A stretch of DNA of 64,000 nucleotides from a bacterium (lineage in GTDB: Bacteria > UBA8248), in assembly GCA_965207065.1 (NCBI GenBank), contig OZ242260.1, positions 160,001 to 224,000 of the forward strand, given 5' to 3'. Shown here piece by piece: positions 21,161 through 39,145 of this stretch (its first letter is position 1; each line of letters opens with the position of its first letter). Both the position numbers and the translations under genes were made by a program. A model generated the notes under the pieces. The model was not told the origin of the DNA and searched no databases. It saw only the letters and a program-made list of their open reading frames with translations.

Positions 21161-21498
21161 ATATCGCCCAATCTACTGTCATGGCGTCAATATCGGGAAC
21201 CGATTTCACTTATTTCGAACATGAAAATATGATGCAGAATATTCTTACTGGAAGGGTAGTTCTGCGTTTCAACCCCCTACCCGTAACTTCCGCAAGGTTC
21301 ACAAAACATGCCTCTAGGCCGCTGCGGCAACGTTAAGCTCGATCAATCTCGAAGGTCAAGTACCTAGACCTAAAATAGCAATTTGGAGGAATGCAACCGG
21401 CTGACTTGGAGCAGGGAATGGTGGTTCCTGAATGAAAGCTACAGGGCACCGACATAACAGCAGGCAAGTTATTTTGGACCGAATATTGGAGGACTGTG

Positions 21499-21678
21499 CG
21501 ACACGGAACCGCTAGGATACGCAGAAGTTAGAATCCGCCCGCTTCCGGTTTGATTGCACCTTGAAGAAAGCGAATCCCCAACGAAACTCCCCAAAAACAA
21601 ATACTCAAAATATTTTCAACAAACTACAAAGACTTCACGTCCGTTGGAAATCCCCCGCCGCCTGAAAACGGGCGAAAA
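21499..21678 (+). repeat. Imperfect ~180-bp direct repeat, copy 1
   Basis: Aligns with 34694-34872; first 54 bp are 45/54 identical. Confidence 0.85.
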
Positions 21679-22083
21679 GCCCCGTGAATTTATAGAATTT
21701 TTCGGAAATACCGAGTGATGAAACCCGACTAAGGAGGGGGGCGGGTTTGACGACCATTGCGGGATAGATTGCCAAGCGATTAAGAAGCGATGGTCGTACC
21801 CGTCCACCGCCTCGAACCGCCTGACCAGAGTCTCGTCGCCGTCGAGGAATCTGAACGCCCACACGTCGTCGGCACCGGTGGCAATCGTCCCCCCAAGCCG
21901 CCCGTCCGGCTTCGCTCCGCCGACCTAAAAAAAAATGGTGAAGCAATCCGTCTGTGTGCTAACATTCCCACCGGTTAATCGTTGTGGTCGGTTAATGAAG
22001 CCAAGAGCTTCGTCGGCGGAACGGGTGATGGCGACTCTGACGATGGGTTCGTCGTTTCTGCAACGCCCAAGAAAGGATATTTC

Positions 22084-23361
22084 GTGGAAGCGAACCTCAC
22101 CGTCATTCTGATCGTTGCCGTCTGCTCCGGTCTCTATATGGCCTGGGGGATCGGCGCCAACGATGTTGCGAATTCGATGGGAACCTCGGTCGGGTCGGGG
22201 GCCATCACGGTAGGCACCGCCATCGTGATCGCGGGCGTATTCGAATTCCTCGGGGCGTTTCTGGCCGGCGGCGAAGTTACCTCGACGATCCGCAAGGGCA
22301 TCATCGACGCGGATGCGCTCGGCCAGGATTCGGACCTGCTCGTCATCGGCATGCTGTCGGCGCTCCTGGCGGCCGCCGTCTGGCTGACGGTCGCCTCCAG
22401 ATTCGGCTGGCCCGTCTCTACCACGCACTCGATAGTCGGCGCGATCATCGGATTCGCGGTTGTGGCGGTCGGGTTCGAGGCCGTCCGCTGGTGGGGCGTG
22501 GCGAAGATTGTCGCGAGCTGGGTCGTCACGCCCATCCTCGCCGGAACGATCTCGTTTCTGCTGGTTCTGAGCGTGCAGTGGCTGATCTTCAATAAAGACG
22601 ATCCTGCAAAGTACGCGCGCCGTTATGTGCCGGTCTACATCTTCGCCGCGGTGCTCATCACCTCGGTCGTGACGTTCGTCAAGGGCTTGAAGCACGTCGG
22701 CCTTGATCTGGGTACACCCCTGGCGATCTTCTATTCGGTGCTGTTTGCCGCCGCCATCGCGTGCGCCGGCCGCGCCGTCATCAATCGCATGAGCTTCGAG
22801 AGCGGCGATTCTCACTCGGGGGGAGGGTCGCGCTTCGCTAACGTCGAGCGGGCATTCGGAATCCTGATGATCGTCACCGCGTCGGGCATGGCGTTTGCCC
22901 ACGGCTCCAACGACGTCGCCAACGCCATCGGGCCGCTGGCCGCAATCATCGCCGTGGCGACGACCGGCGCGGTCGCCTCGAAGTCGGCGGTTCCACCCTG
23001 GCTTCTGCTGGTCGGCGCCTTCGGCATCGTCGTCGGCCTGGCGACGTTCGGGTACCGGGTAATGGCGACGATCGGGAGGAAGATCACGGAGCTCACGCCG
23101 AGCCGCGGGTTCGCCGCCGAGTTCGCCGCCGCGTCGACGGTGGTGGTGGCGAGCGGTACGGGGTTGCCGGTCTCGACGACGCAGACGCTCGTGGGCGCGG
23201 TAATCGGAGTCGGGCTGGCCCGTGGCATGGGCGCCCTCGACTTCGGCGTGGTGCGCACGATCTTCGTGTCCTGGGTTGTGACGCTTCCCGCCGGGGCCGC
23301 GCTCGCGGTGCTGTTCTACTTTATCCTGAGCCTGATCTTGGGCGGGAGCGCCGGGCCATGA
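22084..23361 (+). CDS. pit: Inorganic phosphate transporter (PiT family)
   Basis: GANDVANSMG, PVSTTH, HGSNDVAN; GTG start after AAGGA. Confidence 0.95.
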   Translation: MEANLTVILIVAVCSGLYMAWGIGANDVANSMGTSVGSGAITVGTAIVIAGVFEFLGAFLAGGEVTSTIRKGIIDADALGQDSDLLVIGMLSALLAAAVWLTVASRFGWPVSTTHSIVGAIIGFAVVAVGFEAVRWWGVAKIVASWVVTPILAGTISFLLVLSVQWLIFNKDDPAKYARRYVPVYIFAAVLITSVVTFVKGLKHVGLDLGTPLAIFYSVLFAAAIACAGRAVINRMSFESGDSHSGGGSRFANVERAFGILMIVTASGMAFAHGSNDVANAIGPLAAIIAVATTGAVASKSAVPPWLLLVGAFGIVVGLATFGYRVMATIGRKITELTPSRGFAAEFAAASTVVVASGTGLPVSTTQTLVGAVIGVGLARGMGALDFGVVRTIFVSWVVTLPAGAALAVLFYFILSLILGGSAGP

Positions 23362-23999
23362 GATTCGCCGAGGAATTCCTGCTCCTGCTCCGCGCCGAGG
23401 ACGGAACGCTCTCGAGGGCGGCGGAATGGTTGGTGCGGGCCGCGCTCGGCGCCGCCGTGTTGATGGATCTCGCGCTCGAGAACCGCATCGACACCGACCC
23501 CGACGGGTTGTTCCTCACCGATTCGACGCCGGTCGGCGACCCTCTGCTCGATCCGATGCTCGCCGAGATTGCGCGGGCGGAAACGACCCATGACGCCCTC
23601 TACTGGGTGGATCACGCCACCCGGCACGCCGACGAAATCCGCGAAACCGCATTGGAGCGGCTCATCGGGAACGGGGTACTGGAACTGAAGGATGACCGCT
23701 TCCTCTGGATATTCGGGACGCGACGCTACTTGGTCGCGGATGAGAAGGTCGAGCGTGCGTTGGTGAAACGGATCAGAACGGTGCTCTTGAGCGAGGTGAT
23801 TCCCGACCCTGAGGACATCATCATCATCACCCTCGCGGACGGCTGCGGCCTCATCGGCCCGCTGTTGTCTTCCGACGAGGCGGCTCGGGCTGCGCCGCGG
23901 CTCGAACTGGTGCGGATGATGGACCTGATCGGGCGGGCGTTCCTGAACGCCATGGACGTGGCCGTCCAGCCCGCAGCGGGCAGGCTCGACCGGAGCTGA
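23358..23999 (+). CDS. GPP34/GOLPH3-family protein
   Basis: FAEEFLLLL..GAAVLMDLAL..RI..TPVGDPLLD..LWIFG..RY. Confidence 0.85.
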   Translation: MRFAEEFLLLLRAEDGTLSRAAEWLVRAALGAAVLMDLALENRIDTDPDGLFLTDSTPVGDPLLDPMLAEIARAETTHDALYWVDHATRHADEIRETALERLIGNGVLELKDDRFLWIFGTRRYLVADEKVERALVKRIRTVLLSEVIPDPEDIIIITLADGCGLIGPLLSSDEAARAAPRLELVRMMDLIGRAFLNAMDVAVQPAAGRLDRS

Positions 24000-24133
24000 C
24001 CCCGCCGACCCCCGTCGATTCGCCTTGCAATGCAAGATCGGGATTGCGCCCCCACGACGCACGGCCCGGTCGACCACGGCCACCCGTTCGGCAGGGTCAA
24101 CCGCAGGCGTCTGCGGCTGATGACGATCGGAAA

Positions 24134-24622
24134 CTAGAAGAAGAGAATCAACAGGAAGAGGCTTACCAGGCCGCCGATCATGAAACAGGCGGCGCTGACG
24201 GTGCCGGCCACCGTGGTGTAGTCCGCGATGCGAAACGTCTCGCTGTTCACCGTGAAGAGCACTTTCGTGCGATCCAGGTTGCCGTCGACGAACTGCTTGA
24301 GCCCGTCTTCCGCCCCGTGGGCTTCTTTCACCGAGACCAGGGTCACCAGAACGAGGGTAAGAGCCGCCATGAGAACGCCGGTTCCGAACACGACCAGAGC
24401 CAGCAGGAGCATCCAGTGGTAGAACGCATTCTCAGCCTTCGCGTTATTGCTCATGAACCCGATGATCAACGCGGTGCCGCCCGCATTGCCGTAGAGCAGC
24501 ATGCGCCCCGACTCGGTGATCAGCCGGAACATGGTGCCGCGCCGCAGGGCGATGACCTTGTAGAGTTCGCGCAGCCACTCCTCTCCGACTTCTTCGGTGG
24601 AAAACTCGTCTACCTTTTTCAA
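24134..24622 (-). CDS. Membrane protein, about 3 TM helices
   Basis: Hydrophobic segments; TTG start overlaps upstream stop. Confidence 0.75.
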   Translation of the reverse strand: MKKVDEFSTEEVGEEWLRELYKVIALRRGTMFRLITESGRMLLYGNAGGTALIIGFMSNNAKAENAFYHWMLLLALVVFGTGVLMAALTLVLVTLVSVKEAHGAEDGLKQFVDGNLDRTKVLFTVNSETFRIADYTTVAGTVSAACFMIGGLVSLFLLILFF

Positions 24623-25815
24623 GGCCGCCCTCTCCTTTCGTGGAATCGCCGCAGTTCCCGAGATTCGGTCATCCTGACGTATTTCGAGCCGAAGTTGGTC
24701 CCGGGCTTGAATTCAACGGTCCAGTCGTCGATGAGTATTGAGCCGGCGGCCAAAGCCTGCCGCAGGAATCTCTCCCGCGTAACTTCCCCGCCCGTGCGTT
24801 CCAGCACGGCGATGACGAAGCGCCCGAGAATGTAGCCCTCCAGAGACAACTGGCTGAAGGCGGGCTGAACGGAGCCATTGCGCTTCTCCTCCGCTCTCGC
24901 CAGCATGGCGCGCTGGTAACTTCTGACGATTTTTCTGCTCGCGTCGTTCGCGTCCGGCAGCACCTCGCTCATCATGATTTTGCCGCTCGGCGCTTTCAGC
25001 CTCCGCCTCAAACTCTCGGATTGGGCGATGGACAGAATCGTCATGATGTAACCGTATCCCAGGTCGTTCGCGAGATTGATGATCTCCGCACTGGCCCCAC
25101 CCGTCCCGCCGATCATCAAGACGTCGAGGTCGGCTTTTTGCAGGACGAAAAGGCCCGCGTGAACGGCATGGGTGTTGCGCGAAAAACTCGCTTTCGCCAG
25201 GACGCGGAGTTTGTGCCCGGCGAGCGCCGCCCGGTAGCTCTTCAATATGGAGCGCCCGAAAGCGTCGTCCTGATAGATGATGCCGAAGCGCTTCTTCCCA
25301 TGGTAACGAACGATGTGGTCCACCAAGGCGCGGACCTCCTGGGAATAGCTCGCCCTCAGGTGGACGAGGTTGGGATACCGCTTGGCGTCGCGTAGAAAGT
25401 CGGCGCCGCTCAGGACGCCCACCAACGGGATACCGGCGTTTCGCAGCACCGGCGCGGCGCGCTTCGTCGTAGGGGTTCCCGTTCCGCCGATCAAGGCGAG
25501 CACGTCGTTTCCGGCGGCGAACCTCTTCGCGTTCGCCGCGGCTCTTTGCGGCTCATATCCGTCGTCGAGCGAAATCAACTTCAACACCCTCCCGCCTACG
25601 CCCCCGCGGGCGTTGCGCTCATCGAGCGCCGCGTGGAGGCCGCTCTGGAAGAGCAAACCCGCGCGCCTGGCCGGCCCCGAGATGCTGACGGTCTGGCCGA
25701 AAACCACCGCCTCCGCACTCACGCCGGGCGCCGCCGCCGAGAGCGACGGAGCCAGCAGCAGCGCCAGCGCCAGAAAGGGCGCCGCCCGAAGCATTCCGAA
25801 CAGTCGATCCGTCAT
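24619..25815 (-). CDS. Periplasmic binding protein, Leu/Ile/Val-binding-like fold
   Basis: Signal peptide; LDDGYEP, GTPT, RASYSQE, YQDDAFG. Confidence 0.9.
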   Translation of the reverse strand: MTDRLFGMLRAAPFLALALLLAPSLSAAAPGVSAEAVVFGQTVSISGPARRAGLLFQSGLHAALDERNARGGVGGRVLKLISLDDGYEPQRAAANAKRFAAGNDVLALIGGTGTPTTKRAAPVLRNAGIPLVGVLSGADFLRDAKRYPNLVHLRASYSQEVRALVDHIVRYHGKKRFGIIYQDDAFGRSILKSYRAALAGHKLRVLAKASFSRNTHAVHAGLFVLQKADLDVLMIGGTGGASAEIINLANDLGYGYIMTILSIAQSESLRRRLKAPSGKIMMSEVLPDANDASRKIVRSYQRAMLARAEEKRNGSVQPAFSQLSLEGYILGRFVIAVLERTGGEVTRERFLRQALAAGSILIDDWTVEFKPGTNFGSKYVRMTESRELRRFHERRGRP

Positions 25816-25816
25816 C

Positions 25817-27133
25817 TTATTTTCCCGTCTTACGCCCATGATTGTTCCCGCCCGCGCCAAGCATCTTCTCCGTCATCGGCCTCTGGTCCGCCCGGTTTCC
25901 GAGTCCTCTGCGGCCGCGCGCGCCGTGGCGATGGGAGAATATGGAGGGGGTATCGAATATGAGAGAGCGGGGATTGGCCACCCGCGCGTGATCGCGCTCC
26001 GAGCGCCTTTTGTGGAACTGGCCTTGCATCAGCGGCTTGTCCGACCGGGTGGTTTCGAACTGGTGGATGTAGGGCGGCATCGTGGCCCTGCTCAATCGCC
26101 CATCGCCGTCGGCGGACGTATGCGGCATTCGCGTCACCATTTCCGCCCGGGCATGGCCTGCCCCTTCCGCCGGGCCGAACCCGGCCACGCCGTCGAGCAT
26201 GTTGATGTCGATGGTCGAGTCCTTACCCGGATTCACCACCGACAGGGTCGCCTCGGTGAAGATCGCGCGCATGCGCTGCCAATAACGCGTGATGGCCACC
26301 TGTTTCGGGTTCTTCCTGTATTCGGCCAGCAACGCCTTGAAGGCGTGGACGCTGCCTCGCGCCTGAACGAGGCGTTCGCGGGCGTTCGCCTTCGCGTTCA
26401 TGATCAGCGCCACGGCCTGCCCCTTGCTGCGAGCGAGGAGTTTTTCCCTCTGGCTGTTCGCCCGGCTCACGACCTGCTCGCGCTCGGCGATGGCGTCGTT
26501 GACGTCGCGGAACGCCTGGAGGGTCTCGGGGATCGGGCGCACCTCGACGATGTTCAGCGTGACGAGTTCAACCCCGACGCCCAGCGATTCGAGGCGTTTA
26601 CGCACGATATCGGACAACTGCCGTTGAATGACGTCGCGGTTCGAGGTGAAGATCAAGTCGATGTAGTTTTCCCCCAGTATCTTCACCAATCCCTCCCGGA
26701 CGAGCATGGTGAGCATCGTGCGGGGGTCGGAGGCCGCAAAGAGGTAGGAGCGCAGGTTCTTGATCTTGTATTGAACGGCCACATCCGCTTCGAGGAGGTT
26801 CATGTCTCCGGAGAGTATCGTAAAGTTGATCGTGCCGCCGCGCCTGCTCCCTACCTGGTATCCGACGATCCTCTTGACCTGGCGGACGTACGCTCGTTCG
26901 ATGAGTGGGACGGCGTAGCCCAGCCCCGGGCCGATTTCGGCGTCGACCACTTTCCCGAAGCGGGTGCGTACGGCTTGCTCTTCTTTCTTGACGACGTAGA
27001 AGCCGCTCGCCAGGAATCCGAGCACGCAGACGGCGACAAGACCGCCGATAATTTTCTTGTAATTCCGCCCGAAATAGTCGAATACGGCGTATATGATTCG
27101 CGTGCTCGGCGGCTTTGGATGTTCTTCGTTCAT
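25817..27133 (-). CDS. hflK: HflK-like SPFH protein with long C-terminal extension
   Basis: TM then SGFYVV..EQAVRTRFGK, SGDMNL, AFRDV..A. Confidence 0.85.
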   Translation of the reverse strand: MNEEHPKPPSTRIIYAVFDYFGRNYKKIIGGLVAVCVLGFLASGFYVVKKEEQAVRTRFGKVVDAEIGPGLGYAVPLIERAYVRQVKRIVGYQVGSRRGGTINFTILSGDMNLLEADVAVQYKIKNLRSYLFAASDPRTMLTMLVREGLVKILGENYIDLIFTSNRDVIQRQLSDIVRKRLESLGVGVELVTLNIVEVRPIPETLQAFRDVNDAIAEREQVVSRANSQREKLLARSKGQAVALIMNAKANARERLVQARGSVHAFKALLAEYRKNPKQVAITRYWQRMRAIFTEATLSVVNPGKDSTIDINMLDGVAGFGPAEGAGHARAEMVTRMPHTSADGDGRLSRATMPPYIHQFETTRSDKPLMQGQFHKRRSERDHARVANPRSLIFDTPSIFSHRHGARGRRGLGNRADQRPMTEKMLGAGGNNHGRKTGK

Positions 27134-28041
27134 CGGCCCGTCCCGTCCTGGCGGGGCATCTCCTTGCTGTCGAGGTATTTGAACAGTTCATTGTCCGCCG
27201 GCAGCATGAGAGTCGTGTTCCGGTCGATTATCAGATCATAGCTGTCGAGGGCGCGGATGAACTTGTAGAATTCCGGATCCGCCTTGTACGCCGCACCCAG
27301 CAGCGCCATCGCCTCGGCTTCCGCCTTGCCCAGAATGATCGTCGCCTCGGCGTGGGCGTCGGCGAGGAGTTTTTCGTGCTCGTTGATGGCGCGAGCCTCA
27401 ATGCGGATCGCCGTCTCCTCCCCCTCGCTCCTGTAGCGGGCGGCGATGCGGGCGCGCTCGGAGATCATCCGCTGAATCACGCTCGGCCGGTTCGCCACCG
27501 GCAGCGTGTATTCGACGATTCCGGTCCGCACCACCTCCACGCCGTAATTCTTCCTCGCGGTGGGCGCGATGAGGCCCAGAATCTTCTGAGACGCCTCGCT
27601 CAGGTCTTCATGCTCCAGACCCAGACCGATGAAGGCGTCGCGCGCCTTGTTGGAGATGATGATGCCGCTGCTCGACATGTAGAGGTCCTTGAGCCGATCC
27701 GTCGCGCTCTTGCCGGTACGGATGGACTCGACGAAGAGAATGGGGTCCCGTATGCGCCAGAGTAGGTATCCGTCGATGAGAACGCTCTTCTGATCTTCGG
27801 TAATCAACTCCTGGGTGAGGCCGGTCATGGCGTGAATGCGCCGATCGACCTTATAGACCCTGGATATGGGCCGGGGCCATTTCATGTGGAGACCGGGCTG
27901 TCTGGCGGGAGGCGAAATCTTGCCGAAGTGGGTCAGCACGCCCTGCTGCGTCTCCTCGACGACGTAGAAGCAGTCGTAGGCTACGACGAGCAGGACAACC
28001 ACGGCGATGGCCGTGACGATTCTCTTTGCGCTGAGGGTCAT
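27130..28041 (-). CDS. hflC: HflC-like SPFH protein
   Basis: VEETQQGVLTHFGK, WRIRDP, RMISER..IAARYRSEG, DPEFYKFIRAL..Y. Confidence 0.9.
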   Translation of the reverse strand: MTLSAKRIVTAIAVVVLLVVAYDCFYVVEETQQGVLTHFGKISPPARQPGLHMKWPRPISRVYKVDRRIHAMTGLTQELITEDQKSVLIDGYLLWRIRDPILFVESIRTGKSATDRLKDLYMSSSGIIISNKARDAFIGLGLEHEDLSEASQKILGLIAPTARKNYGVEVVRTGIVEYTLPVANRPSVIQRMISERARIAARYRSEGEETAIRIEARAINEHEKLLADAHAEATIILGKAEAEAMALLGAAYKADPEFYKFIRALDSYDLIIDRNTTLMLPADNELFKYLDSKEMPRQDGTGR

Positions 28042-30788
28042 CTCTTTTCTCTCCCCGTTTCATTCGCTCCGGCGATGGAAGCATTGCGCGCGACGTTTGA
28101 TTTCGCCGCCGCGGCGTGGGCGCCGCTTCTCTCATTTCCGCTATTGTTCCCGCCTTGGGCCGCTTCGCCTTCCGATTTTTCCGATTTGGCTGCGCCGTCC
28201 TTCTCTTTCTTGCCGTTTTTCTCTGCATGGGCGGCGGCATTCCCATCCCCTGCATTCTTCCCTGCATGAGCGGCGCCGCCCGCTGATTTCGCCGATTCGC
28301 CGTGGCCGCCGCCGGTTTGCTTCTCGCCGCTTCCACCACCGTGGCCCGCGCCGCCTTTGGATTTTTCCGATTCGCCGCCGCTCTTGCCGTCCCCGCCGTC
28401 TTTCGCGCCATGGCCCTTATCTTCGCCGGGGCCGTTCCTCCCGCGCGCGGTCTCGTGGGTTCCATGCCTCGTCCCCAACGACTTCCTCTTCCAAAGCGCG
28501 ACCTTGGCCAGACTGCCCTTTTCGGGAACGATGATCTTGGAGTTATGCGAGAGCGCGATTTCGAGTTTCTCGCGCCACAGCATGTTCCGGAGAACCTCCG
28601 GAGCGCTTTGCACGGCCCTGGACACCCGAAGGAGCGCATCGGCCTCCGCCCCGGCGCCCTTCACCCTCCGGTACGCCTCGCCGTCGGCCTGCTTCACTTC
28701 GTAATCGGCGTTGCCGTGCGCCTGGGGAGTGAGCGACACCAGGAGCCGCTGCGCGTTGACGATGATGCGCTCCTTGTCCTCCTGAGCGCTCGATACCTCC
28801 CGGAACGCGCTTATCGTCTCTTTCACGGGGCGGATGGACGCCAGGTTCACCTTGACCAGTTCGACGCTTCCGAACGCCGAGGCTCCTACGTCCGGGTGTC
28901 CGGAATCCGTCCTGGTGGAGAAATGCGCGAACAAATGGGTGACTTGCTTTTCCAGGGTTTCGCGGTGAACGTTGAGCAACTGCTCCAGACCCCGTGCGGA
29001 TACGAAGGAGCGCAGGTGATCCCGGACGCCGTCCTCGATGATTTTCGGCGCGTTCAGGACCCGATAATGGTAGGCGAAGGGGTCTTTCACCCGGTACTGC
29101 ACGTTCACGGTGAGGGAAACCAGATTCAGATCGCCGGACACGTATTCGTGGACGTCGCCGGACATGATGGACTTCACTTCCCGGACCGGCCATTTATCCA
29201 CCTCGACGAAGGGCCAGGGAGCGAGATAGTGCAGCCCCGGCTGCAGATCCTTCCAGTAGACCTTTCCGAACAATCGGCCGTAGCCGACTGTACCGGGAGG
29301 AACGGTCGTGAAGCCGGTGCCGAGGAAGATGAGGAGAATCAGGCCCGTGAGCATGAGGCCCATCGGCGTTTTCAGGGAGAAGGCGCCTCGTATGGGCCGG
29401 CCCCGGGTGAGGCGCTCCCATAGGCGTTTGCAGGGCTCGGACATGGAGCGGATGTTCTGCATCAGATCCTCGTATCCCGTCCGGAAAGCGCCGGCGCGGA
29501 AACGCCATATGATGAGGGCTAAAAAGGCCAGGGCGCTGCCGTATTGCAGCAACAGGATGGCGGGGGAGTCCGAGGCGTCGAGATTCACGGGGAGCGCGAA
29601 GCCGGTGGCGAAGAAAAAGGAGTCGATCAAAACGGCGAAGATGACGGTTACGACGATGACGACGCCGACATAGATGGATGCGAAGCGCGTGCCGAACTGG
29701 TTCATGATGACCGCGATGGTGCCCGTGTTGGTCGCCGGGCCCGTCATGAGAAAAATCAGCGCCGCCCCTGGGCTGAAGCCCTTGGCGACGAGCGCCGCGG
29801 CGATGGGCGTGCTCGCGGATGCGCATATGTAGAGGGGAATCCCGATGATGACCATGATCGGGTAGGACGCCCAGCGGGCGTATTCGTTCTGCATCAGGTC
29901 GCTCGGGATCACCAGAAAGAGCAATCCGCCCACGAAGACGCCGAAGAGCAGCGAGAAGAGGATGTCGTCCGCGATTTCGATGAAGCCGTAGCTGAATATG
30001 TGCCTGACGATCGTCCTGAAGCCCGGCAGCCGATCCTCCTCGGGCGCAGGGGCGAGGGCGGCCTCGGCCGATTCCTCATCGACGAGCAATTCCTCCTGAT
30101 AGAAGTCCGGCTTCACCCAGGACGCGGCCTTCCAGTTTCGCACCGATACGGCGACGCCTATCAGCCAGCGGCGCATGGCATGCTTCAGTTGCGTGGGGCT
30201 GATATAGCAGTCCTCCGAGCCCGGCATGAGCGGCTCGTGCACGCCGTGGTCGTGGCCGTGATCATGGTCGTGTCCGTGGCCATGATCATGCCCGTGATCA
30301 TGCCCGTGATCATGCCCGTGATCGTGGTCGTGTTCGCCTTCCTTCGCTTCGCCCTGGTCGGTTCTGATGAGGCCGATGCAGAAAATGCCTGCGACGACCG
30401 CGGTGACGAAGCTGATGAGGGGCCGCACTATCGCCGCTATCCACCCGAAGAAGGCGTTCGTCACGAGGATCGAATCGGCGCCCGTTTCGGGAGCCGTTAT
30501 CAGAAAAGACATGCACGAGGAGCGCGAAGCCCCCTTCCGCCGCATCTCGGCGACCACGGGCACGACCGAGCAACTGCACAGCGGCACGGGCACGCCGACT
30601 GCCGAACTGACGCTTACCGATTTCAGGCCATCGTCGCGAAGCCACCGGAGAATGGCCTGGCGGGAGATGAATACGTGGATGAGGCCGGAGAGGAACAGCC
30701 CGAGCAGCAGCATGGGCGAGAGCAGAAGGAACGACATCCACAAAAAGTAGAAAAAATCAGCGAATCTGCTCGCCAACTCGGTAGTCAA
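28038..30788 (-). CDS. ArsP/DUF318 (SO_0444-like) metal permease with His-rich loop fused to an HflK-like SPFH domain
   Basis: PLCSCSVVP, PETGADS, YICASASTP, GPATN; (HDHG)n loop; then FTTVPPG..FGK..PGLHY..PWP..AFREVSSA; TTG start after GGGGGA. Confidence 0.88.
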   Translation of the reverse strand: MTTELASRFADFFYFLWMSFLLLSPMLLLGLFLSGLIHVFISRQAILRWLRDDGLKSVSVSSAVGVPVPLCSCSVVPVVAEMRRKGASRSSCMSFLITAPETGADSILVTNAFFGWIAAIVRPLISFVTAVVAGIFCIGLIRTDQGEAKEGEHDHDHGHDHGHDHGHDHGHGHDHDHGHDHGVHEPLMPGSEDCYISPTQLKHAMRRWLIGVAVSVRNWKAASWVKPDFYQEELLVDEESAEAALAPAPEEDRLPGFRTIVRHIFSYGFIEIADDILFSLLFGVFVGGLLFLVIPSDLMQNEYARWASYPIMVIIGIPLYICASASTPIAAALVAKGFSPGAALIFLMTGPATNTGTIAVIMNQFGTRFASIYVGVVIVVTVIFAVLIDSFFFATGFALPVNLDASDSPAILLLQYGSALAFLALIIWRFRAGAFRTGYEDLMQNIRSMSEPCKRLWERLTRGRPIRGAFSLKTPMGLMLTGLILLIFLGTGFTTVPPGTVGYGRLFGKVYWKDLQPGLHYLAPWPFVEVDKWPVREVKSIMSGDVHEYVSGDLNLVSLTVNVQYRVKDPFAYHYRVLNAPKIIEDGVRDHLRSFVSARGLEQLLNVHRETLEKQVTHLFAHFSTRTDSGHPDVGASAFGSVELVKVNLASIRPVKETISAFREVSSAQEDKERIIVNAQRLLVSLTPQAHGNADYEVKQADGEAYRRVKGAGAEADALLRVSRAVQSAPEVLRNMLWREKLEIALSHNSKIIVPEKGSLAKVALWKRKSLGTRHGTHETARGRNGPGEDKGHGAKDGGDGKSGGESEKSKGGAGHGGGSGEKQTGGGHGESAKSAGGAAHAGKNAGDGNAAAHAEKNGKKEKDGAAKSEKSEGEAAQGGNNSGNERSGAHAAAAKSNVARNASIAGANETGREKR

Positions 30789-31107
30789 AGGGTTATCCCC
30801 CAAGGAAGGGGTTCCACAAAAAAAACTTTCGTGGAGCGCCTCGTGTAACACCCCAACCAACATAGTGATAATTCGTCAAGTTACAAGGCGAAAGGGGGTA
30901 TGTCAACGAATTTCTTCAGGCGCACTTACATAGTTTTCGCAGAAAGGTGTTCTGCGAAGAGGGGGCGGGAAAATTTCCCGTCAAAACCATCTGCCGAGGC
31001 GTCCGGGCCGGCGAACGCCGCTACTACGAAAATTCAGGCGCGGGCTACCGGGAATACGCGGGGAGCCGGGCGGACTCGCTCCATATCCCCGGGAAACGCC
31101 GCCCAAT

Positions 31108-32250
31108 TTATTTCCCCGAAAGGCACGTCCCGAGCGATTTCGCCATGCTGCGCATGAGGGTGAAATACGCGTCCTCCCCGGCGGGGATTCCCGTACCCAG
31201 CGGATCGAGCACGCCGGTTCCGGCCCCCGTGCCCTCCATGATGACCTTCACGAGCCTGGGCTGGAACTGCGGCTCGGTGAACACGCAGATCGACTTCGTG
31301 TCCCTGATCTTCCTGCGTATCGCCACCAGGCGCGCCGAGCCCGGCTTCTTCTCGGGCGAGAGGGTCACCGAACCGATGGGGGTCAGTCCGTAGCGTTTCT
31401 CCATGTATTGATACGCATCGTGAAAGACGATGTAGGGCGCGCCTTTCACGGGGGCCAGCGCCTGCGCGAGTTCCTTGTGCAAGGCGTCGATGCGGGCCTT
31501 GAGGTTTTGCGCGTTCGACTCGTATTTTTTCTTGTTCGCAGGATCCACCTCTTCGAGTTCATGCGCGATGGCGTCCACCCACCTACGGGCGTTCATGGGG
31601 TCGAGCCAAATGTGCGCGTCGAAGCCTCCGTGATCCTCCTCATCCCCATGATCACCCTTGGCCTCGGCCTTCTCGTGATGATCGTCGTCTTTCGCCTTGG
31701 CTTCCATTTTCTCGTGGTCGTCATCCTTCGCCCCGGTTTTTTCCTTCTCGTCATGATGATCATCTTCAGCTTTCCCGCGTTTCTCCTTGTCGTGATCATC
31801 GTCCCCGTCTTTCGCCTCTTTGCCCTCATCATGATGATCGCCTTCGGCCTTTTTCTCTCCGCCGTGATCATCGTCGTGCCCTTCCCACAAACCGCCTTCC
31901 CTGAGCTTCAACAACTCCAGTCCTTTCAATTCTCCCAGGGCGACGACGTTCGCCCTTTTCGGCAGAATTTCGAGAGGCCGCTCGAGGCCCGGGGCGAGCA
32001 CATCGCCCACCCAGAAAATCACGCGCGCTCTTTCGAGCTCTCTGGCGTCGGAGGGTTTGAGGGAAAACGTATGGGGCGAGGCAACGCCCTTTATCAGAAG
32101 ATAGGGTTCGCCGATCCCTTTCATGACTCCCGAAACCAGCGAATGAAGCGGTTTGATAGAAGTCACCACCCTTGGGGCGGCCGATGCGGGAGCGGCATGG
32201 TGAGCTGTCAAGACTATTGCCAGAAACCCGACGGTCAATAAATTTTTCAT
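31108..32250 (-). CDS. znuA: Zinc ABC transporter substrate-binding protein
   Basis: VVTSIKP, SPH, long His/Asp loop, DAHIWLDP, FHDAY; start at ATG 32250. Confidence 0.95.
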   Translation of the reverse strand: MKNLLTVGFLAIVLTAHHAAPASAAPRVVTSIKPLHSLVSGVMKGIGEPYLLIKGVASPHTFSLKPSDARELERARVIFWVGDVLAPGLERPLEILPKRANVVALGELKGLELLKLREGGLWEGHDDDHGGEKKAEGDHHDEGKEAKDGDDDHDKEKRGKAEDDHHDEKEKTGAKDDDHEKMEAKAKDDDHHEKAEAKGDHGDEEDHGGFDAHIWLDPMNARRWVDAIAHELEEVDPANKKKYESNAQNLKARIDALHKELAQALAPVKGAPYIVFHDAYQYMEKRYGLTPIGSVTLSPEKKPGSARLVAIRRKIRDTKSICVFTEPQFQPRLVKVIMEGTGAGTGVLDPLGTGIPAGEDAYFTLMRSMAKSLGTCLSGK

Positions 32251-32296
32251 GAATAATATCCCTTTTGGCCTGGAATGTGATTGAAGACAATGCAAT

Positions 32297-32315
32297 AATG
32301 GTATAGTATAATATA
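32297..32315. promoter_or_regulatory. Probable Zur box in the divergent znuA/zur promoter
   Basis: AATGGTATAGTATAATATA resembles the AATGTTATA-N-TATAACATT consensus. Confidence 0.65.
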
Positions 32316-32342
32316 TCTATTTTCTGATCAAGGAATAATTAA

Positions 32343-32831
32343 ATGCCATCAAGCAACAATAATTTTCCCAACAGACATCACGACCATGCGGTCTGTATCG
32401 AGAGTGCGCTGGTACAAGCCGAATTGCTTTGCAGGGAACGCGGAGTAAGGCTCACGCCGCTCAGGAGGCGCGTTCTAGAAATCGTATGGGAGAGCCACGC
32501 GCCCCTTGGCGCCTACGACGCGCTCCAGCGCATGAACGCAGGCGGGGAGCGAAACGCTCCGCCCACCGTCTACCGGGCGCTGGATTTTCTCCTGAAGCAC
32601 GGCCTCATTCACCGCATCGAGAGCATGAACGCGTTCGTGGGATGCGCCACACCGGAGTATACTCACAAAGGCCAGTTCTTCATCTGCCGAGATTGTGGAA
32701 ACGTGGCCGAGGCGCACAGCAAGGAAATCAGCGAGGCCATCGAGGCAAGCGCCACCCGAACCGGTTTTCTGGTGGAAACGCCAGTCGTGGAAATCAGCGG
32801 TCAGTGCCTGGAGTGTCATGACAATGAATGA
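32343..32831 (+). CDS. zur: Zinc uptake regulator (Fur family)
   Basis: RLTPLRRRVL, PPTVYRALDFL, CRDC..CLEC; znu context. Confidence 0.93.
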   Translation: MPSSNNNFPNRHHDHAVCIESALVQAELLCRERGVRLTPLRRRVLEIVWESHAPLGAYDALQRMNAGGERNAPPTVYRALDFLLKHGLIHRIESMNAFVGCATPEYTHKGQFFICRDCGNVAEAHSKEISEAIEASATRTGFLVETPVVEISGQCLECHDNE

Positions 32832-33609
32832 AGCGCGACCTCCCCTCATTTCCGTTGCGAACCTCAACTTCGGCATCGGGGAGACGACGATTCTCCAAAA
32901 CATCAACCTCGAAATATCGGCGGGCGAAATCCTCACTCTTGTCGGCCCTAACGGCGCGGGCAAAACCACCTTGGTCCGCGTGCTGCTCGGACTGCTCAAG
33001 CCCGACTCGGGCGAGATCCGCCGAAAGGAGGGCATTTCGGTCGGCTACCTTCCCCAGGCTTTCGAGGTGGACCCCTCGCTTCCGCTCACAGTGCGCAGGT
33101 TGTTAAGCCTCACGCAAAAGCCGTCGCTCAAGCAGATGGAGGCGCATCTCGAAGAGGTGGGCGCGAGAAACCTGCTGGATCATCCCGTCCAGAGCCTCTC
33201 GGGTGGAGAGCGCCAGCGCGTGCTTCTCGCCCGCGCCCTGCTGCGCAATCCCGAACTTCTCGTTCTCGACGAACCCATCCAGAACGTGGACATCAACGGA
33301 CAGACCGAACTCTACCGACTCATCATGAAGATCAGAGACAACAGGGGCTGCGGTGTTCTCATGATCTCGCACGACCTCCACCTCGTTATGGCGTTCACCG
33401 ACCTCGTGGTGTGCCTCAACAAGCACATCTGTTGTTCCGGACATCCCGAAGCCGTGAGCAAGCACCCCGAATACCTCGCCCTGTTTGGAAAGCAGGCGGC
33501 TGAGAGCCTGGCGGTCTACACACACAGGCACGACCACGTTCACGGACCAGAAGGGGAGATACTCCCCATCGAACCCGAAGAAGCCCATCACCATCATGGA
33601 GACACCTGA
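32824..33609 (+). CDS. znuC: Zinc ABC transporter ATPase
   Basis: GPNGAGKT, LSGGE, LDEP, SHDL, HICCSG, His-rich tail. Confidence 0.95.
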   Translation: MNEARPPLISVANLNFGIGETTILQNINLEISAGEILTLVGPNGAGKTTLVRVLLGLLKPDSGEIRRKEGISVGYLPQAFEVDPSLPLTVRRLLSLTQKPSLKQMEAHLEEVGARNLLDHPVQSLSGGERQRVLLARALLRNPELLVLDEPIQNVDINGQTELYRLIMKIRDNRGCGVLMISHDLHLVMAFTDLVVCLNKHICCSGHPEAVSKHPEYLALFGKQAAESLAVYTHRHDHVHGPEGEILPIEPEEAHHHHGDT

Positions 33610-34400
33610 TGGAGGATTTCATGCTCAGAGGTCTCATGGGAGGGGTGGGCGTCGCCCTGGTCACGGGCCCCGTGGGCTGTTTCATCGTCTGGCGCAAGAT
33701 GGCCTATTTCGGGAATTCCATGTCCCACACGGCTCTCCTCGGCGTGGCGATAGGGTTCGCCTTCGGGGTGGATATCAGGCTCGGCATCCTCATCTCCTGC
33801 ATCGGCCTCGCGCTCATCCTCCTGATGCTGCAAAGCCGGAAAACACTCTCCACCGATACGCTGCTGGGCATCCTGGCGCACACGGCGCTTTCGGTGGGCA
33901 TCATCGCCGTCAGCGTGCTGGAGACGCTCCGGGTCGATCTGATAGGCTATCTCTTCGGCGACATCCTCGCGGTCGGCCCGCTGGATTTGTGGTGGATCTA
34001 CCTCGGCGGGGCGGCGGCGCTGGGTACGCTCGCGTGGCTGTGGCGAGGCCTTCTCGCCGTCACGGTGAACGAAGAACTCGCGAGCGCCGAGGGGATACCG
34101 ACATTCGCCGTGAAACTCGTCTTCATGCTCCTGATCGCCTTCATCATCGCCATCGCCATGAAGTTGATAGGAATACTGCTCATCACCTCGATGCTCATCA
34201 TACCGGCGGCGGCGGCGCGGCGATTCTCCAAAACACCCGAGCAGATGGCGGCGCTCGCCGCCCTGGCGGGGACCGTATCAGTAGTGGCGGGTCTGTGGGT
34301 GTCGGTCGCATGGAACGCGCCCGCAGGGCCGTGCATCGTTGTGGCGGCGGCGGCGCTGTTCCTTTTCAGCCATACCTGGGAGATCCTGACCGGTAGGTGA
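33609..34400 (+). CDS. znuB: Zinc ABC transporter permease
   Basis: GCFIVWRKMAYFG..SH, YLFGDIL, IIPAAAAR. Confidence 0.95.
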   Translation: MEDFMLRGLMGGVGVALVTGPVGCFIVWRKMAYFGNSMSHTALLGVAIGFAFGVDIRLGILISCIGLALILLMLQSRKTLSTDTLLGILAHTALSVGIIAVSVLETLRVDLIGYLFGDILAVGPLDLWWIYLGGAAALGTLAWLWRGLLAVTVNEELASAEGIPTFAVKLVFMLLIAFIIAIAMKLIGILLITSMLIIPAAAARRFSKTPEQMAALAALAGTVSVVAGLWVSVAWNAPAGPCIVVAAAALFLFSHTWEILTGR

Positions 34401-34872: not shown

Positions 34873-34907
34873 ATCCTATTTTAAATGCACCTCATATTCA
34901 GCAGGAA

Positions 34908-37479: not shown

Positions 37480-37899
37480 ATGCATGAAATGAATCACAAT
37501 CCACAAAATTACGAACCACGGTTACTTCAATTTCCGCTAGGGATAGAGGAGGATGCTGATAGCAAGATGAAGGCGAAAATCCCAATGCATTCTCTAGAGG
37601 CACAATTCCCACCTTTAACAAAAAACGGGACTCTGCGAAATTCTCAACCTGCAAATGACCGAAAGCGCAGATCCTCCACTGTGCCGACCATCTCGGCGAA
37701 AGATCTCGAAAACAACAAATACCTAACCGTCAAGGAAGCAGCTATTTATACCAACACTCCAGAGAACACTATCCGCAGTAAATGGATAGCGATGCGAAAA
37801 GCCCCATATCACAAGATAGGGAAATCAGTAATGTTCAATCGTGTCGAACTAGATGAGTGGATGGAGCAGCAGAAAATCGAACCCATTACTATAGATTAG
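37480..37899 (+). CDS. Excisionase-like HTH protein
   Basis: YLTVKEAA.Y..TI..PYHKIG..V.F...ELDEW; start uncertain. Confidence 0.85.
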   Translation: MHEMNHNPQNYEPRLLQFPLGIEEDADSKMKAKIPMHSLEAQFPPLTKNGTLRNSQPANDRKRRSSTVPTISAKDLENNKYLTVKEAAIYTNTPENTIRSKWIAMRKAPYHKIGKSVMFNRVELDEWMEQQKIEPITID

Positions 37900-37910
37900 A
37901 GGAAGTATGA

Positions 37911-39038
37911 ATGGACAAAAGAAGAAAACACATACCCGCCAACTCGAAGTCATTGCCAAAAGGGATTCAGTTTTTTCCTGAAAAAAAGAAGTTTGGGATT
38001 GATATACATGCAGATGGGCGACGCATCAGGAAAGGCAACCTCCCCAATAGGGCAACTGCCGAGCGCGTGCTAGCCAAACTTAGAACCGAGATCGCCGAGG
38101 GAAAATATCTGGATAAGAAGAAAATTAAAAATCCCCTTTTCTCTGCGGTCGTCAAAGAATATGAAAAATGGGCACAGTCCCGAAAGAAAAGCTATGAGAA
38201 CACAGAAAAATATCAGCTTAAAGAATTGATGCGCGAGTTCGGAGAAAAGAAACTCGCCGATCTCACTCCCACAGTGATTGAAAAATTCCTAACCAAATTA
38301 ATGGAGCGCGAGGGTCGAACACCAGCCACATGCAATCGATATCGTTCTTTACTTAGTCGTGTATTTCATAAAGCCATCGATTGGGAATTCTTCGAAGATC
38401 GAAATCCCATCACCAAAGTGTCCAAAATGAGGGAGCCATCTGGGCGTGAAAGAGTGCTTCGGGGAAATGAGAGGGAATGTCTGCTAGCGGCGGCTGAAGA
38501 ACCACTTAAGTCATTCATTCTCGCCGCCCTTTGTACAGGTTGCAGGAAAGATGAACTCCTCCAACTTCAGTGGGCAGAAGTCGATCTTGATTCCGATATC
38601 ATCAAAATATTAGGTGAGAATGCAAAAACAGGTAAATCTCGGGAGATACCAATCCATCCAGAACTTAAAGAGATTCTAATCAATCTTCCTAGTCGCTTTC
38701 AGGGTCAGTTCGTCTTCATCAATCCAAATACCCTCAAACCTCTGCGTCAGCCAAAAGGTGGTTCCATTTACATTAGGAGGGCATGGAAACAAGCTACCGA
38801 ACGTGCAGGTATAAAGGATCTACAATTTCATGATCTTCGTCATGACTTCTGCACAAATGCCATGAGAAGTGGTATCCATCCAAAAATCGTTCAGGAGTGG
38901 ATGGGGCACTCAAAATCCATCATGACAGACCGGTATACCAATTTTGGTTTTGAGGAAACCCGAGCAGCAATGGCTAAACTTTCATCTTCTAACGATGATG
39001 CAACGTCCACTAAAACGTCCATCGCAAATTTAGGTTAA
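37911..39038 (+). CDS. int: Tyrosine recombinase/integrase
   Basis: TGCR, NAKTG, FHDLRH, MGH, TDRY; abuts the tRNA 3' end. Confidence 0.96.
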
Positions 39039-39069
39039 CCGCAAAACTCATCCAAGTCATTGTATTTGT

Positions 39070-39145
39070 TGGTGGAGCTGAGGGGGATCGAACCCCTGAC
39101 CTCATGACTGCCAGTCATGCGCTCTCCCAGCTGAGCTACAGCCCC
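39070..39145 (-). tRNA. tRNA-Ala (GGC)
   Basis: GGGGCTGTAGCTCAGCTGGGAGAGCGCATGACTGGCAGTCATGAGGTCAGGGGTTCGATCCCCCTCAGCTCCACCA. Confidence 0.98.

Follow-up and report, generated by a model that had tools for sequence, protein, structure and literature searches.

Bacterial HflK and HflC have FtsH as their sole established partner (7vhp, 7wi3, 9cz2), and in the E. coli HflK the residues 85–351 comprise the SPFH domain and the coiled coils that build the cage. Among the metal permeases, SO_0444 is described as being needed under ZnSO4 or CuCl2 stress, judged by mutant fitness and complementation (PMC3219624), and within the NF033936 family tolerance of excess Zn or Cu is known for SO_0444 itself only; a Cys-Ser-Cys (CSC) sequence is presented as the signature motif of the permease family (bioRxiv 10.1101/2022.07.06.499078). 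Here we describe a bacterial locus, found in a window of 64,000 nucleotides, in which an SO_0444-type permease continues in the same polypeptide into an HflK-like domain. We consider it moderately probable that the five genes of the locus form one conserved, mobile module for the homeostasis of zinc and heavy metals, in which the permease would be tethered to a periplasm-facing SPFH assembly.

In the 5′ to 3′ direction the module encodes the permease–SPFH fusion, an HflC-like protein, a second HflK-like protein, a binding protein of the Peripla_BP_6 type and a three-helix membrane protein (Table 1). The tight coupling of the genes claimed in a preceding sequence-only reading follows from the ORF coordinates, with 4-nt overlaps at 28038–41, where the fusion-gene stop overlaps the start of the HflC-like gene, at 27130–33 and at 24619–22, and the reported 1-bp gap before the binding-protein gene is likewise correct, because translation from the ATG at 25815 begins with the signal peptide MTDRLF.... 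The fusion gene likely starts from the TTG at 30788 proposed in the same reading, which is preceded by GGGGGA and coincides with the point where the homologues begin in the alignment. As had also been stated, the module lies downstream of znuA, which likely starts from the ATG at 32250 and shares the strand of the fusion gene. The two genes are 245 nt apart, and a scan of this interval revealed no terminator-like site. Both hexamers of the promoter-like element upstream of the fusion gene are kept in five close relatives (L001–L005), except for one base of the second hexamer in L003; a consensus promoter scan did not detect the element. Contigs from four RNA libraries in three studies cover genes 1–5 and span the gene junctions at 24619, 25817–25860 and 27130, although such contigs may include DNA and a single transcript is not provable from them.

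Table 1 Features of the permease–SPFH locus and its surroundings; positions are numbered from the first nucleotide of the window.
Feature	Position	Strand	Remarks
PHO4/PiT-type transporter and coupled GPP34-family gene	21982..23999	+	Pfam; convergent with the module
Five-gene module	24134–30863	−	ORF list
Small membrane-protein gene	24134..24622	−	162 aa
Binding-protein gene	24619..25815	−	ORF extends to 25860; ATG at 25815; signal peptide
Second HflK-like gene	25817..27133	−	438 aa; N-terminal TM helix
HflC-like gene	27130..28041	−	303 aa; N-terminal TM helix
Fusion gene	28038..30863	−	941 aa counted from ATG
C-terminal tail	28041..28466	−	G/K/E/A/H-rich; ~residues 800–941
HflK-like SPFH and coiled coil	28503..29348	−	Residues 506–787
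Linker and single anchor helix (fusion junction)	29295..29498	−	Basic; 9 K+R in 38 residues
Permease domain	29508..30737	−	Residues 43–452; NF033936
His/Asp/Gly-rich loop	30234..30338	−	~Residues 176–210; permease central loop
Promoter-like element	30878..30906	−	TTGACA-17 nt-TAACTT, TG before; 5′ of fusion gene
znuA	31108..32295	−	Pfam ZnuA E 8.5e-68; long His/Asp/Glu-rich loop
Zur-box-like site GGTATAGTATAAT	32300..32312	+	Divergent znuA/zur promoter
zur-znuC-znuB	32343..34400	+	FUR family E 2.5e-14; divergent from znuA
HTH_17 (excisionase-like) gene, tyrosine integrase, tRNA-Ala(GGC)	37480..39145	.	Probable right end of variable island

The fused open reading frame is confirmed both by its domains and by its conservation. 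Pfam places ArsP_1 at residues 46–413 (E 7e-46) and Band_7 at residues 520–705 (E 3e-14), and the SO_0444 Cu/Zn efflux model NF033936 matches with 313.8 bits against a cut-off of 300, its positions 3–348 of 351 corresponding to the permease domain. Homologues of the fusion protein number 392 at E≤0.001 and range from 517 to 1647 aa, and PF03773 and PF01145 occur together in nearly all of the best 120 of these. Many residues are invariant in the alignments of both halves, and the linker and the anchor helix are conserved as well. Read support is provided by two RNA-library contigs, X16 record 8 (28746–29460) and X18 record 24 (29394–29588), which cross the permease–linker–SPFH junction without gaps. 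The gene is a single ORF of more than 700 aa in 79 of 80 loci from independent assemblies, and the only case resembling two separate genes is the locus L065, where it appears as two ORFs of 450 and 288 aa. The long ORF is thus not a product of faulty sequencing, misassembly or an overlooked stop codon that joined two genes, and the residual probability that we assign to such an artefact is practically nil.

The permease part is made up of two homologous halves, one with the motif PLCSCSVVP and the other with PLYICASASTP, and of a ninth hydrophobic helix, as judged from hydropathy and the model helices. The Cys-Ser-Cys motif (C96-S97-C98) is invariant in 13 aligned sequences, as is C347, and in an alignment of 92 sequences C71, equivalent to C96 of the whole protein, is invariant while S72 and C73 are nearly so. 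The translation also shows the EHDHDHGHDHGHDHGHDHGHGHDHDHGHDHG loop and, at the other end of the protein, a tail rich in G/K/E/H. The loop, which contains the DNA repeat family D1 at 30245–30328, is kept in most homologues and has a pLDDT below 50 in the model; by a 4+4+1 helix count and a cytoplasmic linker it would be periplasmic, although broken helices could reverse the side. Stand-alone permeases of 403–516 aa are equally similar, with 60–70% identity over 87–100% of the permease region, which means that the permease family functions without an SPFH partner and that the high cross-phylum identity is partly a property of the family.

Downstream of the linker, the fused region aligns with residues 85–351 of the E. 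coli HflK (7vhp_E, E 4.8e-17 in phmmer) and thereby covers the whole HflK ectodomain. A Foldseek search with the AF2 model of the domain, which has a block-mean pLDDT of mostly 70–90, matches 7vhq_E with an E-value of 2.2e-13, and all matches are to SPFH cage proteins, namely HflK/C, QmcA, prohibitin, stomatin, erlin, flotillin and vault. The long C-terminal tail is present only in this lineage and a few others, while most homologues end at about residue 810–830 in the alignment. All three SPFH proteins of the module exceed the Band_7 (PF01145) cut-off of 23.6 bits, scoring 53.7, 64.0 and 70.4. Of the equivalog models, the HflK model TIGR01933, with a cut-off of 159.4 bits, is reached neither by the fused domain (125.8 bits) nor by the second HflK-like protein (148.7 bits; Band_7 E 2.5e-19), and the HflC-like protein is above the cut-off of TIGR01932 (175.6 versus 134.4 bits). 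The HflC-like protein is 65–94% identical across the loci and 31% identical to the canonical HflC of the genome, whereas the second HflK-like protein, which ends in a long basic, His-containing extension, shares 28% identity with both the fused SPFH domain and the canonical HflK. The genome has six Band_7 genes, of which three belong to the module, two make up a canonical pair, hflK-hflC, at 1.97 Mb and one is located elsewhere, and the identity of the module proteins to the canonical pair is 23–31%. These comparisons support the three SPFH proteins as a dedicated set additional to the canonical hflKC pair. Hydropathy and charge analysis places positive charges before each SPFH anchor helix, a distribution that agrees, as does the signal peptide on the binding protein, with the periplasm-facing arrangement suggested earlier. 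PADLOC anti-phage models gave no families for any of the five proteins.

The fourth gene encodes a clear Peripla_BP_6 protein (E 2e-48, 166.3 bits against a Pfam cut-off of 31.7), with 4kv7 as its best solved relative (E 1.6e-41), and it is conserved in 75 loci. The claim that it lacks a nearby ABC partner proved correct. While the genome has 43 BPD_transp_2 matches, the closest, at 138.8–140.5 kb, is about 45 kb away and lies beside another binding protein; no LivH/M-type ABC permease is found within about 45 kb of the gene and none in the module in the 80 loci. The closest paralogue in the genome, at 36% identity, is also an orphan (L094:5736–6923) and is situated in an operon with a HAMP histidine kinase, which has a weak TorS-sensor match, and a response regulator–SpoIIE protein; such a setting points to sensing and not to transport. 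The small protein encoded by the fifth gene has no Pfam or NCBIfam match, and with no Foldseek match to solved structures at E≤0.001, no DctQ/TctB-like fold was found. Its AF2 model (pLDDT 85) shows three long helices, and the family has 33 representatives in 1.84 billion. Conserved in the alignment A4 are W16, R28, M31, N46, G49, H69 and the motif KEAHGAE, and the conserved charged segments, the N-terminal helix and the KEAHGAE loop, are predicted to be cytoplasmic from the charge distribution.

The module was confirmed at 208 genome loci, of which 80 were kept, all from MAGs of 10 named phyla. Conservation of the operon is high, and 74 of the 80 loci keep the full set of five genes in the same order; five others are interrupted by the end of the available sequence, and L065, which has the split fusion, is without the hflC-like gene. 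Within the genus the distribution is patchy. The module is situated to the left of a tRNA-Ala/integrase junction that is probably the right end of a variable island holding it, and all five same-genus genomes without the module share the DNA that lies right of the tRNA. The module tree conflicts with the phylum labels, and therefore the module probably moves horizontally. The convergent PHO4/GPP34 pair also stands beside the module in alphaproteobacterial MAG loci, and in L054, L060 and L071–L073 the identity is 80–82% for PHO4 and 70–76% for GPP34.

The genomic context of the module is overwhelmingly one of metal transport. At least one of the ZIP, ZnuABC-like and CusA/CzcA-type gene classes occurs within 8 kb of the module in 69 of the 80 loci: ZIP in 35, where in 30 cases it directly follows the small-protein gene and shares its strand, CusA/CzcA-type RND, adaptor or OEP genes in 36, and znuA in 19. 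In three loci, L054, L060 and L072, the module is enclosed by znuA on one side and znuCB on the other, all on a single strand. The znuA of the window scores 265.3 bits with NF007091, the cut-off being 268, and zur-znuC-znuB have paralogues elsewhere in the genome; the site GGTATAGTATAAT of the divergent promoter resembles the GTTATATTATAAC site of the second znu locus of the genome. Within the window no Zur-box-like site with up to three mismatches is found between znuA and the fusion gene. Across the loci, 5 of 79 have a Zur-box-like site in the 400 nt preceding the fusion gene, compared with about 0.4 expected, and the pattern of these sites recurs at the znuA/zur promoters in L001, L002, L004, L005 and L073. 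Importers (ZIP, ZnuABC) stand beside exporters (CzcCBA-like) in this context, and together with the Zur-like sites, which would imply induction in zinc shortage, such a mixture is a poor fit for a plain detoxifying exporter.

In the model that we favour, the three HflK/HflC-type paralogues would each have a single N-in anchor helix, with the SPFH domain and coiled coil in the periplasm, and would assemble, by analogy with the E. coli HflK/C, as a ring or cage at the periplasmic side of the inner membrane. One HflK-like subunit would be covalently joined through the basic cytoplasmic linker to the permease C-terminus, and the tether would therefore keep the transporter permanently inside the patch of membrane bounded by the assembly. 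The SO_0444-type permease has the His-rich loop and a putative metal site made of the CSC and C-A-S-A-S motifs, and by family homology the protein may move Zn(II), possibly Cu or Cd, over the inner membrane, most likely outward from the cytoplasm. The binding protein and the three-helix protein would be obligate partners, for which we favour a sensing or regulatory role over substrate delivery.

The opposite direction is proposed by a zinc-acquisition reading: under the control of Zur, Zn or a chelate of it would enter the cell through the permease after capture by the secreted binding protein, with the small protein coupling the substrate to the permease. The parts would amount to a secondary transporter of the TRAP/TTT kind that depends on a binding protein, and the SPFH ring would hold them together. 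The znuA or znuABC genes that adjoin the module, and flank both of its sides in three loci, the frequent ZIP neighbour, the Zur-box-like sites and a secreted binding protein without an ABC partner would all suit such a role, and a binding protein, a small membrane protein and a large permease make up the TRAP/TTT parts list. However, the characterised relatives of the permease, SO_0444 and ArsP, are all exporters in the sources consulted, Peripla_BP_6 proteins are not known as metal binders, and the closest solved relatives of the binding protein are labelled as leucine/isoleucine/valine-binding or generic ligand-binding-receptor proteins. The signalling operon of its nearest paralogue, the small protein without a Foldseek match at E≤0.001 and the CzcCBA-type exporters near the module in 36 of the 80 loci also speak against import, which appears unlikely.

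The complete HflK ectodomain in the fusion and the established partnership of HflK/C would instead be explained if the SPFH trio recruits the FtsH of the cell, with the permease as a tethered substrate or client, its level set by proteolysis, and the SPFH part as a degradation switch rather than a transport compartment. The genome does have two ftsH genes, but with positions of 2.09 and 3.58 Mb they are 1.9 and 3.4 Mb distant from the window at 0.16–0.22 Mb, in agreement with the earlier observation that none is close; nor is ftsH present near the module in the window or in the set of neighbour families that recur across the 80 loci. Since, moreover, the canonical hflKC pair is kept beside the divergent module proteins and two extra conserved genes are left unexplained, we regard an FtsH adaptor as quite unlikely. 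A sensor device, in which the binding protein senses a periplasmic ligand and gates or signals via the small protein while the permease serves mainly as a metal sensor, would account for the two-component and partner-switching surroundings of the closest paralogue and for the predicted cytoplasmic location of the conserved charged segments in the small protein. No kinase, cyclase or DNA-binding domain is present in the module or recurs beside it, though, and the motifs of the permease transport site show full conservation, which makes this reading very unlikely.

Compared with SO_0444/NF033936 and the ArsP/SaoE relatives, the tethered permease is alike in the full-length model match, the CSC motif and the metal-related neighbourhood. 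SO_0444 itself is reported to have a ZntR-like neighbour (PMC3219624), whereas around the module there are zinc importers and, at some of the loci, Zur-like sites instead of a ZntR-type activator. The permease also has an added central His-rich loop, and it does not have the stand-alone architecture of the SO_0444 family, as the protein continues into the TM and SPFH region. The orphan binding protein with a non-ABC membrane partner recalls the TorT–TorS-type co-receptors and the TRAP/TTT systems, although these are analogies only: the binding protein is of the Peripla_BP_6 type and not a TorT, DctP or TctC, and the module has no Pfam or NCBIfam matches to DctP/TctC or DctQM/TctBA that would place it among the TRAP/TTT transporters.

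Closer parallels are found among the SPFH proteins. The SPFH–NfeD operon QmcA–YbbJ of E. coli (8z5g) likewise pairs an SPFH protein with a dedicated membrane partner. The fused domain finds QmcA when solved structures are searched by sequence (E 5.1e-07) as well as with Foldseek (E 6.7e-10), but the module has no NfeD domain according to Pfam and NCBIfam. The orientation of QmcA is also the opposite, facing the cytoplasm. With the E. coli HflK/HflC–FtsH cage the module shares the alignment over the cage-building part of HflK, an HflC-like protein that passes the family cut-off, single N-in anchors with the bulk of each protein outside, and translationally coupled adjacent genes of the HflK and HflC types. 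It differs in having three SPFH chains rather than two, one of them fused to a nine-helix metal permease, in the HflK-like chains that fall below the cut-off, and in the two further conserved genes and the absence of ftsH nearby. A conserved but unstudied module of this kind could reveal functions of bacterial scaffold cages other than the holding of FtsH. The sequence-only reading knew of no characterised example, and indeed no characterised permease–SPFH module was found in the literature; the wider idea of an SPFH cage around a transporter, however, has a precedent in human stomatin, whose cages are described as enclosing aquaporin-1 and UT-B (PMC12407830). In the stomatin cage (PDB 9zd2, of which 9zd2_E is a Foldseek match of the fused domain), an SPFH oligomer surrounds a channel or transporter, and by that account the client is bound non-covalently within a homo-oligomer on the cytoplasmic face. 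In contrast, the module carries the client in the same polypeptide and is predicted to form a hetero-oligomer that faces the periplasm.

The fusion of a permease to an SPFH protein in the first gene of the module is real. The sequence-only reading had proposed it from a single ORF, and a word-indexed search of 5.8 billion proteins found 392 relatives of similar length; nearly all of the 120 matches listed, at 58-89% identity, combine ArsP_1 (PF03773) with Band_7 (PF01145), and the few names among them are only 'SO_0444 family Cu/Zn efflux transporter' or the JGI label 'YraQ ... / HflC'. RNA-library contigs (X16 record 8, 28746-29460; X18 record 24, 29394-29588) span the join of permease, linker and SPFH domain unbroken, and others connect neighbouring genes at 24619, 25817-25860 and 27130; contigs of this kind can include DNA and are no proof of a single transcript, and the lack of cover over 30716-32400, which includes znuA, carries no evidential weight. 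The TTG at 30788, preceded by GGGGGA, is probably the true start of the fusion, since this is where the homologues begin.

Features of the module and its surroundings
Feature	Position	Strand	Remark
Short word GTTCTACTCTATC	531, 558, 612		within 531-624
VapE-like (primase/helicase-type) gene	16908-18425		left of the module
Low G+C stretch	20000-21500		0.46-0.49, versus ~0.6 in the module
~180-nt repeat, two copies	21499-21677; 34694-34871		~74% identical; bracket the PHO4-to-znuB block
PHO4/PiT-type transporter and GPP34 gene pair	21982-23999		translationally coupled
Small protein gene (gene 5)	24134-24622	minus	ORF
Binding protein gene (gene 4)	24619-25860	minus	ORF; signal-peptide start ATG 25815
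hflK-like gene (gene 3)	25817-27133	minus	ORF
hflC-like gene (gene 2)	27130-28041	minus	ORF
Fusion gene (gene 1)	28038-30863	minus	941 aa from ATG; family matches ArsP_1 (residues 46-413) and Band_7 (residues 520-705)
Inverted repeat, 9 nt	30936-30958		not conserved in relatives
znuA	31108-32295		long His/Asp/Glu/Lys-rich insert
Zur-box-like site	32300-32312		znuA/zur promoter
Zur-box-like sites right of znuB	35338-35350; 37268-37280		3 and 2 mismatches, respectively
HTH_17 (excisionase-like) gene, tyrosine integrase, tRNA-Ala(GGC)	37480-39145		looks like the right junction of an island

The couplings described earlier, four-base start/stop overlaps at 28038-41, 27130-33 and 24619-22 and a 1-bp gap before the binding protein gene, were all recovered, the gap depending on an ATG that opens a typical signal peptide. 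znuA lies upstream on the same strand, as had been stated, with zur-znuC-znuB divergent from it. The fusion exceeds the cut-off of the NCBIfam SO_0444 Cu/Zn efflux equivalog (313.8 bits, cut-off 300) and falls below that of HflK (125.8 bits, cut-off 159.4), the second protein passes as HflC (175.6 bits, cut-off 134.4), the third is HflK-like at 148.7 bits, below the cut-off of 159.4, the fourth matches Peripla_BP_6, and the fifth has no match in Pfam or NCBIfam. A role in defence was considered and dropped, since a PADLOC run returned zero matches.

The post-permease region of the fusion aligns with residues 85-351 of E. coli HflK, that is, the SPFH domain and the coiled coils, and an AlphaFold2 model of residues 26-810 (mean pLDDT 70.9) retrieves with Foldseek the SPFH cage proteins HflK/C, QmcA, prohibitin, stomatin, erlin, flotillin and vault. 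The only non-SPFH matches of the fusion in the PDB, by Foldseek and phmmer, are two weak ones on the His-rich loop (E 0.002 and 0.005). A search for long proteins with an HflK2-like domain, which would point to comparable joins in other pumps, gave none, a negative of little weight. As neither search found a solved ArsP_1-type fold, the topology of the permease, two homologous four-segment halves plus a ninth helix, is left between alternatives: the His-rich loop would be periplasmic if all segments span the membrane and cytoplasmic if broken helices re-enter. Basic residues precede the single hydrophobic helix in each SPFH chain, and the fusion linker carries 9 Lys and Arg in 38 residues, which fits an N-in, periplasm-facing orientation as in HflK/C and agrees with a secreted binding protein. 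In alignments of 13 and 92 sequences the invariant residues extend over both halves of the fusion and include C96-S-C98, C347 and the linker, C98 being nearly invariant in the larger set.

The small membrane protein belongs to a tiny family, with 33 representatives at E<=0.001 among 1.84 billion sequences and only unnamed "hypothetical" clusters in the ESM Atlas. H69 and the motif KEAHGAE are among its conserved positions, and its model consists of three long helices (pLDDT 85), for which Foldseek gave no PDB match at E<=0.001; an analogy to TRAP DctQ or TTT TctB is thus left without structural support. A complex prediction of the permease domain with the mature binding protein and the small protein, scored for the latter as the partner, gave 0.00, which weighs neither way.

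The order of the five genes is clearly conserved. A scan of one genome per species gave 208 loci encoding a relative of the fusion, of which 80 were kept, all MAGs by title, from 10 named phyla and, in nine loci, without a phylum label; 74 of the 80 hold all five genes in the same order on one strand, and five are cut by the end of the available DNA. The remaining locus, from an Opitutales MAG (L065:7980-11571), encodes the permease (450 aa) and the SPFH part (288 aa) of the fusion in two separate ORFs and lacks the hflC-like gene; decay of the copy, a naturally split form and an assembly error are all conceivable.

Clustering and annotation of the flanking ORFs of the 80 loci places the module largely among metal transport genes. 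A ZIP transporter follows the small protein gene in 35 loci, in 30 of them on the same strand, CusA/CzcA-family RND pumps with adaptor and outer-membrane proteins occur in 36, znuA in 19, znuB in 17 and Na/Pi cotransporters in nine, and 69 of the 80 contain genes from one or more of the classes ZIP, Znu-like and RND. Some of the 'znuC' matches, at no more than 26-30% identity, may represent other ABC ATPases. In three loci (L054, L060 and L072) the module sits between znuA and znuCB on one strand. The PHO4 gene of the window, coupled to a bacterial gene of the GPP34 (Golgi phosphoprotein 3) family, also accompanies the module in the alphaproteobacterial MAG loci L054, L060 and L071-L073 at 80-82% (PHO4) and 70-76% (GPP34) identity, and in L073 a Zur-box-like site separates the pair from znuA.

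The proposed link to zur and znu held in part. A Zur-box pattern, taken from the second znu locus of the same genome, is present in the znuA/zur promoters of five loci (L001, L002, L004, L005 and L073), and in 5 of 79 loci (L024, L056, L058, L064 and L071), against ~0.4 expected, it is also seen upstream of the fusion at a distance of 400 nt or less. In the window its sole occurrence is the site at 32300-32312 in the znuA/zur promoter, and none lies between znuA and the fusion at up to 3 mismatches. This spacer contains instead a promoter-like TTGACA-17-TAACTT, kept in five close relatives except for one base in L003; a consensus scan, which is weak evidence either way, reported neither this element nor a terminator, and Rfam gave nothing below E 0.6 over 21100-35000. 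The two Zur-box-like sites right of znuB lie near small genes without known function and a TM2-domain gene. The second zur-znuCB/znuA locus of the genome (616452-619646 of its contig C1) is complete, 67-85% identical and has the canonical box GTTATATTATAAC, and a third copy of znuB and znuC (~2261996-2263815) is accompanied by a zur fragment. The ZnuA of the window scores 265.3, just below the equivalog cut-off of 268, and its unusually long insert comprises roughly 90 residues with HDD/HHE repeats.

The distribution within the phylum is patchy. Among 51 genomes surveyed, the fused gene occurs at 91-95% identity in five other genomes of the genus and as fragments in a sixth; it was not found at E<=1e-20 in 16 further ones, several of them 99-100% complete, and the other genera hold only unfused permeases of 34-59% identity. 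The integrase and tRNA-Ala region resembles the right-hand boundary of an integrated island, since the DNA right of the tRNA is conserved in all five same-genus genomes compared that lack the module. In those genomes the DNA left of the module (8000-16800) is not adjacent; left-flank synteny did not define the left end, and no second copy of the tRNA-Ala 3′ end was found as an att site within the window. The VapE-like gene and the low G+C stretch fit foreign or mobile DNA. The ~180-nt repeat, present in a dozen or more further copies in the genome at 68-96% identity and without an Rfam match, may be a MITE-like element or a structured RNA of no known family, and GTTCTACTCTATC, which came up solely among the near-matches of a motif search, recurs in a way that hints at a short repeat array where the window begins.

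A FastTree phylogeny of the 80 fusion proteins groups them by lineage and needs 14 label changes against a minimum of nine, with Bryobacterales nested in a group of proteobacteria and Arenicellales adjacent to Gemmatimonadota; the labels are the submitters', and such conflict is no proof of transfer. Stand-alone permeases are 60-70% identical, as similar as the fused relatives, and high identity alone is therefore no evidence of transfer. In a plasmid collection searched by tblastn, none of 72,556 records covers at least 80% of the fusion, 42 match in part, the 15 listed all on the HflK-like part, and the one neighbourhood inspected is unrelated (groES/EL and transglutaminase-family genes). 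With possible source runs set aside, runs of several studies contain half or more of the sampled words, and six such runs, from six studies, are labelled sponge metagenome.

Taken as a mechanism, the HflK/C-type assembly would carry its client covalently, fixing an SO_0444-type permease in a membrane patch fenced by an SPFH ring, and the module would act in zinc and heavy-metal homeostasis. Judged by its family, the permease would export Zn or Cu from the cytoplasm, which would fit a position upstream of CzcCBA-type pumps, whereas a function at low zinc is suggested by the Zur-like sites and by the neighbouring ZIP and Znu genes. Export, including export for periplasmic metallation, is given roughly half of the weight, and import between a fifth and a third. 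An elaborate form of the export reading, in which the three SPFH chains seal a periplasmic chamber over a cluster of tethered permeases, seems improbable when all its parts are taken jointly: zinc would be pumped from the cytoplasm into the chamber and not the open periplasm, His-rich loops and tails would buffer it before its transfer either to secreted zinc proteins or to the binding protein inside the chamber, Zur would switch the chamber on at zinc scarcity, and the cassette would be traded among co-habiting bacteria, for which the labels of the DNA runs point to sponges.

Three rival explanations were considered. To our knowledge, enclosure of FtsH is the only well-understood job of bacterial HflK/C-type SPFH cages, and the module might accordingly be an FtsH-adaptor switch; with ftsH genes only at 2.09 and 3.58 Mb, the genome has none near the module, as had been noted, and of its six Band_7 genes three belong to the module, a canonical hflK-hflC pair at 1.97 Mb accounts for two, and the last is separate. 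The module chains are 23-31% identical to that pair and ~28% to one another and, judging by sequence, are not the housekeeping HflKC. A binding-protein-dependent importer would draw on the Peripla_BP_6 protein, whose best match among solved structures is 4kv7, labelled 'probable Leu/Ile/Val-binding protein'. This protein is a true orphan, as had been suspected: the genome has 27 Peripla_BP_6 and 43 LivH/M-type matches, and the nearest LivH/M-type permease is ~45 kb away, beside another binding protein. A sensor device is suggested by its closest paralogue (36% identity), likewise an orphan, in an operon (L094:3550-9044, equal to G000:C1:717549-723043 of the same genome) with a HAMP histidine kinase, a HATPase_c_2 (anti-sigma-type) kinase, a response-regulator-SpoIIE phosphatase and a response regulator, which looks like a binding-protein-dependent partner-switching pathway. 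Given this signalling operon, a sensing or regulatory role is at least as likely as substrate delivery for the module protein.

If the fenced-permease reading is true, it would add a new layer to bacterial zinc homeostasis, with a transporter in a protein-fenced membrane patch and an orphan binding protein, and the sealed chamber, if real, would be a protein-walled compartment for metal handling or metallation in bacteria. A client, the metal permease, is welded to a cage subunit and kept with four partner genes across at least 10 phyla, and the module offers a defined, testable SPFH-client pair; it probably also exemplifies how uncultured bacteria exchange a metal-handling cassette by horizontal transfer. 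In a literature search neither an ArsP/SO_0444-SPFH fusion nor the five-gene module was the subject of any paper, and the one publication in which 'ArsP' and 'SPFH' co-occur is a census of transporters in Asgard archaea. Among known systems HflK/C-FtsH, the SO_0444 family and QmcA-YbbJ come closest, and a likeness in concept is seen in the human stomatin cages, which, according to PMC12407830, enclose aquaporin-1 and UT-B.
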